The translations under genes and the position numbers were made by a program. DNA of 64,000 nt from Escherichia coli (GTDB taxonomy: Bacteria > Pseudomonadota > Gammaproteobacteria > Enterobacterales > Enterobacteriaceae), in the NCBI RefSeq assembly GCF_017348835.2, contig NZ_CP071375.1. The stretch is one strand, 5' to 3'. Below the pieces are notes generated by a model. It was not told the origin of the DNA and did no database searches. It saw only the letters and a list, made by a program, of their open reading frames with translations. Positions 5,908-7,115 of the stretch are shown here, one piece after another. Every line of letters begins with the position of its first letter. Positions within the stretch are counted from its first letter, which is position 1.

Positions 5908-6177
5908 ATGAACATACTAAAAAAACTTATGCAGCGTCTGTGTGGTTGCGGAAAGCATGATGGCCGTGAACACGTGCAGTCGCTTACAGCACAACTGCGA
6001 CTGGGGCCGGCAGACATCCTGGAGTCCGATGAGAATGGTATTATTCCGGAGCAGGACAGGGTAATCACACAGGTGGTGATACTGGATGCAGATAAAAAGC
6101 AGATACAGTGTGTGGTAAGACCGCTGCAAATCCTGCGTGCTGACGGGAGGTGGGAAAATATTGGCGGGATGAAGTAA
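5908..6177 (+). CDS. Small hypothetical phage protein downstream of the tail fibre gene
   Basis: 89-codon ORF (MNILKKLMQRLCGCGKH...), ATG placed 1 nt after the stf stop. Its 3' end and terminator are duplicated in degenerate form at 6951-7115. Function unknown. Confidence 0.45.
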   Translation: MNILKKLMQRLCGCGKHDGREHVQSLTAQLRLGPADILESDENGIIPEQDRVITQVVILDADKKQIQCVVRPLQILRADGRWENIGGMK

Positions 6178-6192
6178 CCCGACGGATTCACA

Positions 6193-6220
6193 AAAACCGG
6201 AGTCTGGCTCCGGTTTTTGT
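6193..6220 (+). terminator. Rho-independent terminator
   Basis: aaaaaccggagtctggctccggtttttg: stem ccggag / ctccgg plus T-tract. Confidence 0.7.
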
Positions 6221-6290
6221 TGTCATGTATGGGGGCTGTTTGTTATGACTCCCTGTGTTTGGAATGAATATTTAAATAGGGAGTTTTGTC

Positions 6291-6866
6291 ATGCCGTTAA
6301 CATCAGCTATTGCATCCAATTCATTTTCCACCGGAATGCAGGTTCTTCGTGCTCAAATGGCCGCCAGTGGCGGTGGAGAAATTACAGTAGGCGGGCAGAC
6401 GGTCCGTATCACATATAGTGAAACGGATGGTCGCTTTCTGGCGAGTGGGGGCAATAACAGTTTGCTTTCTGGATTATTACTTACAGGGCTTAATGGTGGT
6501 CCTGAAGCGCTCAGGGATATAATGTTAAGAATGGTTTCAGGTTCAGGTAACACACAATCACATGGTGATATTGAGGGGAAAATATCACAATGTAAGTTTT
6601 CTGTTAATACGGAGAGCCTTCAGTGTCCATCCGAGGCGGTTCGATGCCCAATTATACTGGATAAACCAGAAGAAGGTGTGTTTGTTAAAAATTCAGAAGG
6701 TTCTTTGGTTTGTACCTTATTTGATTCGGTTTCTTTTTCTCATTTGGTTCGCGACGGTGGGAAGCACCCGCTAACACGAGAACCAATAACGTCATCAATG
6801 ATTGTAAGTCAAGAACAATGTATTTATGACCAAACCAAAGGAAACTTTGTCATAAAGGATAAGTGA
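6291..6866 (+). CDS. nleG: NleG-family type III effector (U-box E3 ubiquitin ligase-like), paralog 1
   Basis: 191 aa, RBS agggag. C-terminal block CP...CPIILD.PEEGVFVKN..G..C.LFD......L.....HPLTREPITSS.I is the NleG-type conserved domain shared by all four paralogs here. Confidence 0.75.
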   Translation: MPLTSAIASNSFSTGMQVLRAQMAASGGGEITVGGQTVRITYSETDGRFLASGGNNSLLSGLLLTGLNGGPEALRDIMLRMVSGSGNTQSHGDIEGKISQCKFSVNTESLQCPSEAVRCPIILDKPEEGVFVKNSEGSLVCTLFDSVSFSHLVRDGGKHPLTREPITSSMIVSQEQCIYDQTKGNFVIKDK

Positions 6867-6950
6867 AATAAATATTACCCAAGCTATATGTTAACTGCCA
6901 GTTGCTTATATGAAATGCTACAGATGTTCAGGGTATAAGGATGTGGTAAT

Positions 6951-7115
6951 TGGTGTACTGGATGCAGCTAAAAAGCATATACAGTGAGTGGTGAGGCCGC
7001 TGCAAATCTGGCGTGCTGACGGGGAAATATTGGCGGGATGAAATAGCCGACGGATTCACAAAAACCGGAGTCCGGCTCCGGTTTTTGTTGCCATGTCAGG
7101 GAGATGTTTGTTATG
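6951..7115 (+). repeat. Degenerate direct repeat of 6075-6247 (3' end of small ORF, terminator and leader)
   Basis: About 165 bp, roughly 88% identical to 6075-6247 with small deletions that break the ORF; includes a second copy of the terminator hairpin at 7060-7087. Confidence 0.85.

Follow-up and report, generated by a model that had tools for sequence, protein, structure and literature searches.

A tail-fibre gene terminus and its decayed copy at the left border of effector cassettes in a lambdoid prophage of Escherichia coli

[quoted passage not shown] Phage morons, independent transcription units inserted between phage genes, are said to go back to Juhala, Hendrix et al. in 2000. EEL is the term in use for the effector loci of lambdoid prophages in EHEC and EPEC (PMC8112680), and the variation of these loci has been ascribed to insertion sequence (IS) elements, imprecise excision or the integration of one prophage within another (PMC8112680 among other sources). 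[quoted passage not shown] Here we describe a repeated block in a 64,000-nucleotide stretch of the E. coli contig NZ_CP071375.1 (assembly GCF_017348835.2), which is called the window below. The block is made of the 3′ part of ORF89, an 89-codon open reading frame (ORF) of a prophage, with the hairpin and leader that follow it; copy A stands in front of the first of three nleG effector genes and copy B in front of the second. We consider it likely that the block is the fixed left border of an EEL, that copy B is the scar of a stacking of effector cassettes, and that homologous recombination within the block swaps and removes cassettes.

In a blastn search of positions 5908-6290 against the whole window, 6074-6248 matched 6951-7116 over 175 columns with 85.7% identity, counting nine gap columns (E = 6.4e-53), and the 64 kb contained exactly this one second copy and nothing else similar. 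The ungapped blocks of the repeat (repeat families D6, D8 and D9) are 89-90% identical. When the less-deleted homologue of E. coli E2348/69 is included in the alignment, the left edge moves to GGTAAT and the repeat becomes 6060-6248 and 6945-7116; when gap columns are included, copies A and B agree at 82.5% over this extended block (156 of the 172 aligned bases). The motif gtttgttatga occurs at 6238-6248 and 7106-7116, and the nleG start codons (6291 and 7157) follow 42 and 40 nucleotides (nt) downstream. The coordinates of these and the neighbouring features are given in Table 1.

Table 1. Features at the effector-carrying end of the prophage in the window
Feature	Position	Strand	Basis
stf, side tail-fibre gene	4593..5906	+	Pfam PF08400 (3.4e-69), PF01391, PF06820 (1.3e-36); RefSeq annotation of the 100%-identical PE164 locus
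ORF89, intact 89-aa (270-bp) gene, source of the repeat	5908..6177	+	Pfam PF06820 Phage_fiber_C, E = 1.1e-36, aa 28-89
Copy A: ORF89 3′ part (6060-6177), spacer, hairpin, leader ending GTTTGTTA(TGA)	6060..6248	+	blastn, alignments
Hairpin A: ACAAAAACCGGAG-TCTGG-CTCCGGTTTTTGT	6190..6220	.	Inverted repeat I1; RNA fold -30 kcal/mol, z = -5.0
Leader A (TGTCATGTATGGGGGCTGTTTGTTATGA)	6221..6248	+	Homology with other prophages stops after TTTGTTA (anchored comparison, 44 + 80 loci)
First nleG (nleG_A), 191 aa	6291..6866	+	Pfam T3SS_NleG PF06416, 2.5e-45; RefSeq DUF1076 coding sequence
3′ flank of first nleG, as far as its junction with the truncated ORF	6867..6944	+	Repeat family D4; identical flank in E2348/69
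Copy B, former-ORF part: 5′-truncated, decayed ORF89 pseudogene	6945..7046	+	Alignments
Hairpin B: ACAAAAACCGGAG-TCCGG-CTCCGGTTTTTGT	7058..7088	.	Inverted repeat I1; fold -26.6 kcal/mol, z = -3.8
Leader B (TGCCATGTCAGGGAGATGTTTGTTATGA), undamaged	7089..7116	+	0 novel states in the post-stop part versus 23 in the former-ORF part
Second nleG (nleG_B), 193 aa from the RefSeq start	7157..7738	+	PF06416, 2.2e-43; RefSeq 'T3SS effector NleG family protein'
Third nleG, 211 aa	7806..8441	+	Pfam, 1.8e-46

Copy A belongs to the live gene ORF89, which RefSeq annotates as a coding sequence (CDS) for a phage tail fiber C-terminal domain protein. Variation among 48 intact ORF89 alleles is distributed 17/12/30 over the three codon positions, highest at the third, and ORF89 thus behaves as a real coding gene. 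The Phage_fiber_C domain is found intact twice, at the stf C-terminus (aa 365-428) and in ORF89 immediately downstream. Because the stf C-terminus belongs to the same Pfam family, ORF89 is an old duplicate of the fibre tip, and with two intact copies upstream the scar at 6945-7046 is a third, partial one.

Copy B starts at about codon 51 of ORF89. It carries an in-frame stop where TGT has become TGA (6985-6987) and deletions of 1 nt (6955/6956), 7 nt (7020/7021) and, relative to E2348/69, 8 nt (6950/6951), and its former stop codon is the TAG at 7044-7046. Only chance ORFs of 43-45 amino acids (aa) overlap it, and RefSeq annotates no CDS over it in three genomes: copy B is a decayed fragment of ORF89 and not part of a gene. 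In the flank that precedes it (6867-6944), the first ~60 nt show loose homology to the spacer that separates the second from the third nleG. An earlier, sequence-only reading of the window had set 6075-6247 against 6951-7115 at about 88% identity, and had seen in this the 3′ end of a small phage ORF with its terminator, recurring in degenerate form upstream of the second nleG, with small deletions that break the frame of the second copy and an nleG paralog with gtttgttatga in its leader behind each copy. All of this holds: the similarity is significant, the ORF is the Phage_fiber_C gene ORF89 with its hairpin, both downstream genes match PF06416, and copy B lies in no intact gene.

At 7113-7157 there is also a 14-codon upstream ORF (MKPRGNIYLYEGIW), which starts at the ATG inside GTTTGTTATGA and whose TAA stop overlaps the ATG of the second nleG (TAATG). 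We dismissed it as a leader feature of this gene and regard it as probably fortuitous, because it is not conserved in two related prophage loci (L022 and L019; related loci are given below as L with a number).

Hairpin A starts 12 nt past the ORF89 stop and has 13-nt arms. The structure has a 14-pair stem with a CCGGAG/CTCCGG core, TTTTTGTTG downstream and an A-run upstream, and its stable G+C-rich stem plus T-run mark it as an intrinsic-terminator-like stem-loop, which the A-run makes bidirectional. A consensus promoter and terminator scan did not list the hairpin as a terminator, because the T-run begins within the stem. Transcripts of ORF89 and of the first nleG would end at hairpins A and B. 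The leader that follows has 28 nt of the form TGYCATGT...GTTTGTTA, and in copy B both hairpin and leader are intact despite the decay of the gene part. The stretch GATGTTTGTTATGA may resemble attI1/P2 sequences of class 1 integrons, a likeness to which we give no weight as evidence. Among the representative genomes of GTDB an exact 27-mer had no match, and a looser 21-base pattern gave 77 loci, three of which are true homologues. The palindrome core without ORF89 or leader homology occurs at ~74 loci in other genera, as expected of a generic terminator.

The position of the block was compared over two sets of IMG/VR loci, 87 retrieved by the exact hairpin pattern and 80 retrieved by an ORF89 protein query without selection for the hairpin. 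In the protein-retrieved set the hairpin follows 78 of the 80 intact ORF89 copies and a leader ending in TTTGTTA follows about 69; the loop and the lengths of the A- and T-runs vary, and two stem variants keep G.U pairing (+ strand). Directly past TTTGTTA there are at least 22 different 8-mers. Behind this border lie genes for several NleG subfamilies, for NleB (NCBIfam NF011909, 7.8e-201), for NleH (NF041316, 4.7e-175) and for a 291-aa protein, as well as regulator-like ORFs and IS elements. Across 160 related prophage loci, effector cassettes have as their left border the ORF89 3′ end, the hairpin and the TTTGTTA leader, and the block is thus a common, fixed left border of the effector-carrying prophage end. 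The comparison with effector loci of other lambdoid prophages that the sequence-only reading had proposed as a check was therefore positive.

Truncated copies of the block recur within multi-effector arrays, and their left ends differ. The classes are q~150, to which the window belongs and which appears also in a separate J::ORF89 fusion; q199, upstream of nleH; and an internal fragment, q130-251. The fusion lies in a degraded prophage (L083:7990-8170), where the first ~57 codons of J are joined to ORF89 at GGTAAT and the block precedes nleB; it removes J, lom, stf and the 5′ half of ORF89. In L152 and L121 homology breaks some 30-70 nt past the ORF89 stop, in the 3′ arm of the hairpin between GGCTCC and ATTTTACCACCTCCACGGGAGGTGG, and a different hairpin follows, which is another mosaic junction within the hairpin itself.

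The two copies in the window are embedded in sequences of quite different similarity. Between A and B the block is 82.5% identical, the leader 53%, the nleG 5′ half 56%, the nleG 3′ half 72% and the 3′ flank 53%, and the first and second NleG proteins are 49% identical. A block that is a pseudogene in one copy is far more similar than coding sequence under selection, and the step lies exactly at TTTGTTA; the region is therefore a mosaic. An in-situ tandem duplication of a ~870-bp unit (ORF 3′ end, terminator and nleG), followed by divergence, would agree with the constant spacing of all repeat blocks (868-876 bp) and with the repetition of the nleG 3′ halves (D1, 73%; D4, 83%), which makes the whole unit formally a tandem repeat. 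However, the non-uniform divergence just described, with the block well above the coding 5′ halves and the leaders, is the opposite of what a single duplication date would give; each nleG has close single-copy orthologues directly behind an intact ORF89 elsewhere (L054, L032, L019 and L022), and the scar of E2348/69 precedes nleB2, a non-homologous gene. We regard such a duplication as improbable. The 'duplication' of the sequence-only reading is thus real as a repeat and does not hold as an in-situ duplication of the nleG unit.

The mosaic reading is carried further by prophages in which the same parts are arranged differently. The four loci just named have the order stf, ORF89, hairpin, second nleG, third nleG, espW and nleG; this is the effector locus of the window, lacking both the scar and the first nleG. 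In L054 the 39 informative columns on the 5′ side of the hairpin loop are all of A type and the 30 columns on its 3′ side are all of B type, including the rare TGCCATG variant otherwise seen only in the window, and the next 3.9 kb are 99.95% identical to the window. L054 is a clean homologous crossover between copy A and copy B that deleted the first nleG cassette.

In prophage PP4 of EPEC E2348/69 and in L004, L078 and L079, the order is stf, ORF89, hairpin, nleG, scar and then nleB2. Upstream of the scar these prophages have the identical 78-nt flank, and their scar shares with that of the window the 1-nt deletion, the TGA and the 7-nt deletion; beginning shortly before the hairpin, it has the leader variant that typifies nleB2 loci. 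Since the scars share their lesions and differ in their cargo, there was a single truncation, in a common ancestor, and a later crossover within the block exchanged the cargo downstream. The scar join is old; its junction is present in at least 383 complete genomes. The potB prophage of E2348/69 has stf-ORF89 and no effectors. The truncating join lies inside the ORF and was therefore illegitimate or guided by microhomology, and the independent deletion in L083, which also ends at GGTAAT, suggests the latter. Crossovers within the block have thus both deleted and exchanged cassettes, and the gain of cassettes by stacking is what we infer from the scar. The proposal of the sequence-only reading, that effector cassettes were added in tandem by recombination at a conserved segment, stands accordingly for exchange and loss (L054; E2348/69 and L004), and addition is the part that is reconstructed.

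The two parts of copy B have fared differently. Compared with 41 intact alleles, the scar of the window has 23 never-seen states in the 118 columns of the former ORF, and none in the 76 columns from the old stop to TTTGTTA, or in the 45 that are left when the hairpin columns are removed (Fisher test, p = 5e-6 with and p = 6e-4 without the hairpin columns). The hairpin and leader have been kept working by either purifying selection or repeated conversion from intact copies. Between nleG and nleB2 of E2348/69 there is a single perfect inverted repeat (13-nt arms, 5-nt spacer), identical to hairpin B, and the same hairpin stands upstream of NleB, NleH and NleG genes in many prophages. These likenesses make it very probable that the hairpin is the regulatory repeat published as the NRIR, and hairpin B with its leader may have this regulatory role for the second nleG. 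What had been called a terminator from the sequence alone is thus a terminator-like hairpin that is probably also the NRIR.

It is very unlikely that copy B, besides being a scar, functions as a product, either a small protein or a small RNA (sRNA) that derives from a 3′ untranslated region (UTR) and stops at hairpin B. The first nleG would have its 3′ UTR at 6867-7090, closed by a strong terminator, and a 43-aa ORF (7013-7144) overlaps the copy; however, the deletions of the former ORF are lineage-specific and differ between O26-type and E2348/69-type copies, which is a pattern of neutral decay, no Rfam family matches the region at the gathering threshold, and no CDS is annotated in it.

A dedicated, structure-guided site made of the hairpin and TTTGTTA (attC-like or of the hairpin-transposase kind), at which unrelated effector genes were inserted at one exact nucleotide, would turn lambdoid prophage ends into a natural 'effector integron' and would suit the start of at least 22 8-mers at the same nucleotide, 28 nt from a conserved hairpin, and the mosaic junctions within or beside the hairpin (L152/L121 and L054), but it is the least probable of the explanations considered and hardly to be expected, as no recombinase or integrase is annotated at the effector (tail-fibre/potB) end of the annotated prophages, no block copy accompanies the third nleG, espW or the fourth nleG, the truncated copies differ in their left breakpoints (q130, ~q150 and q199) and carry ORF debris, and some leaders are homologous past the border (that of NleH to that of the 291-aa protein; that of the first nleG to that of the second). 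The differing breakpoints and the debris fit illegitimate joins followed by homologous exchange, and the leaders that are homologous past the border show that the 'sharp' border is partly a step in conservation.

Stacking followed by homologous exchange within the block would proceed as follows. The block comprises the 3′ part of ORF89, its putative bidirectional terminator hairpin and the leader ending in TTTGTTA, with cargo behind. In an ancestor, DNA just past the first nleG would have been joined at GGTAAT to the middle of the ORF89 of another prophage end, and this founding join would have stacked two effector units, a cassette ahead of a second effector locus. In its gene part the scar then decayed, and the hairpin and leader stayed intact, probably preserved because they would terminate transcription of the first nleG and serve the effector that comes next as its upstream regulatory region, and probably also refreshed repeatedly by recombination with intact copies. 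Homologous recombination within the block deletes cassettes and exchanges downstream cargo, as the mosaics exemplify, and can also rebuild arrays. Of 5426 complete E. coli genomes, 685 have a 99-nt core of the block, in up to 11 copies (median 7), and with about seven copies per genome in these pathogens the block acts as a portable homology patch.

Several points weigh against this reading. The absence of novel states after the old stop could reflect gene conversion instead of selection for function. In the hairpin-retrieved set the hairpin columns are invariant by construction, and for this reason the statistics are given without them as well. The identity of the hairpin with the NRIR is deduced from likeness. 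No sigma-70-like promoter was recognised by the consensus scan in or adjoining the block (6180-6290 and 7047-7156), where TTGTCA and TTGTTA hexamers are present without a convincing -10, so that the regulatory role of the block rests on the literature and not on the sequence. The 78-nt flank at 6867-6944 was found only with the scar, never in a parental context, and the founding join of the first nleG 3′ flank to ORF89 at GGTAAT is thus reconstructed, not observed.

The window contains the right end of a lambdoid prophage whose integration site is potB. It is 100% identical to a prophage end of E. coli PE164 (one substitution and one indel over 5.2 kb), and O26:H11, O103:H2 and related strains are 99.3-99.8% identical. 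The RefSeq gene order in PE164 is J, lom, stf, ORF89, three nleG genes, espW(-), nleG(-), a trcA-like chaperone gene and potB/potA, and in PE164 and the O26 strain 11368 the effectors have the tail-fibre genes on one side and the prophage/chromosome junction (attR) on the other. The type III secretion system (T3SS) effectors of the locus are three NleG-family proteins identified by Pfam, to which RefSeq annotation adds EspW and a fourth gene of the NleG family (DUF1076). The third nleG lacks an upstream block copy and accompanies the second in the same four prophages that lack the first. Among homologous prophage ends a single stf-ORF89 backbone is followed by varying cargo, namely NleG, NleB, NleH, the 291-aa protein and others. 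In position, in T3SS effector genes and in variable content, the locus is a textbook EEL.

The stf protein has an N-terminal domain, collagen-like repeats and a C-terminal Phage_fiber_C domain; at 5000-5680 its gene encodes Ala/Ser/Glu-rich degenerate repeats (D5 and D7) and then collagen-like Gly-X-Y repeats (D2 and D3; Pfam Collagen). On the minus strand, espW (8569-9627) has one T fewer than in PE164 in a T8 run at about 9099 (9092-9106), which splits the frame, 352 aa long elsewhere, into overlapping ORFs of 192 and 175 aa; this reflects either an error of sequencing or a pseudogene made by a homopolymer frameshift. A palindrome with 15-nt arms and perfect spacing (ATATTGCCTGAACAA/TTATTCAGGCAATAT), which was listed as terminator-like, lies at 8501-8530, between the third nleG and espW, which are convergent. 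Rfam matches at the gathering threshold elsewhere in the window are the ALIL pseudoknot, an IS3-family frameshift element (56935-57051, 120 bits), and the C0299 sRNA (46204-46282, 112 bits).

Outside E. coli, the representative genomes of 100,044 species contain the block only in E. albertii and in two short contigs. These are L236, which is labelled Xanthomonas pisi DSM 18956 (725 bp), and L248, a contig of a Lachnospiraceae metagenome-assembled genome; their ORF89 blocks, at 89-92% identity, are most likely contamination or mis-binning. The 291-aa protein (MFCIRTLLPISASV...) is encoded directly behind the block in 13 prophages (L063:2559-3434, L082, L026 and 10 other IMG/VR loci), and its leader is homologous to that of nleH. 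Neither this protein nor a 180-aa protein behind the block in other prophages matches a Pfam or NCBIfam family, and the 291-aa protein is a candidate uncharacterised effector.

The kind of feature described here is already known, through the EELs and the NRIR. Like the EELs described, the locus is a cluster of T3SS effector genes between the tail-fibre genes and attR of a lambda-like prophage, with content that varies among related prophages; unlike here, the accounts accessible to us contain no ORF89-hairpin-leader block as a shared border and no truncated copies as scars. Like the NRIR, which is conserved upstream of nle genes including EPEC nleB2, the hairpin precedes NleB, NleH and NleG genes. 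However, the NRIR has been described as an expression element, whereas here the probable NRIR is also the terminator-like hairpin of a tail-fibre-C gene, and for nleB2 and the second nleG it sits in a pseudogene remnant of ORF89. In the accessible literature, which did not include the primary NRIR paper, we found neither the NRIR block as the terminator region of the tail-fibre-C gene nor truncated ORF89 copies as marks of stacking, one of which forms the nleB2 'regulatory region' of E2348/69 and is unannotated in RefSeq.

These findings give a concrete account of how effector repertoires are reshuffled in the prophages of EHEC, EPEC and E. albertii. A block of 100-190 bp would have two roles, as the upstream control region of many effector genes and as a homology patch, the latter documented for loss and exchange and proposed for stacking. 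The NRIR may have begun as the terminator of a phage tail-fibre gene, and on this reading the nleB2 'regulatory region' of the reference EPEC would be a tail-fibre pseudogene remnant. This is a useful point of annotation and a modest evolutionary refinement, not a new kind of system.

Two more distant systems share parts of this organization. Morons are likewise non-phage cargo at the end of the late operon, each with a terminator hairpin and its own upstream regulatory region, but here the consensus scan recognised no sigma-70 promoter, and the second and third nleG share one upstream block. In integrons, arrays of unrelated cargo are also split by a conserved hairpin element (attC) with a sharp boundary. 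In contrast, the prophage locus has no associated integrase and does not have one site per cassette, since some of its genes are without a site, while phage-gene debris with differing left breakpoints lies at the sites that are present; ordinary homologous recombination explains the exchange seen.

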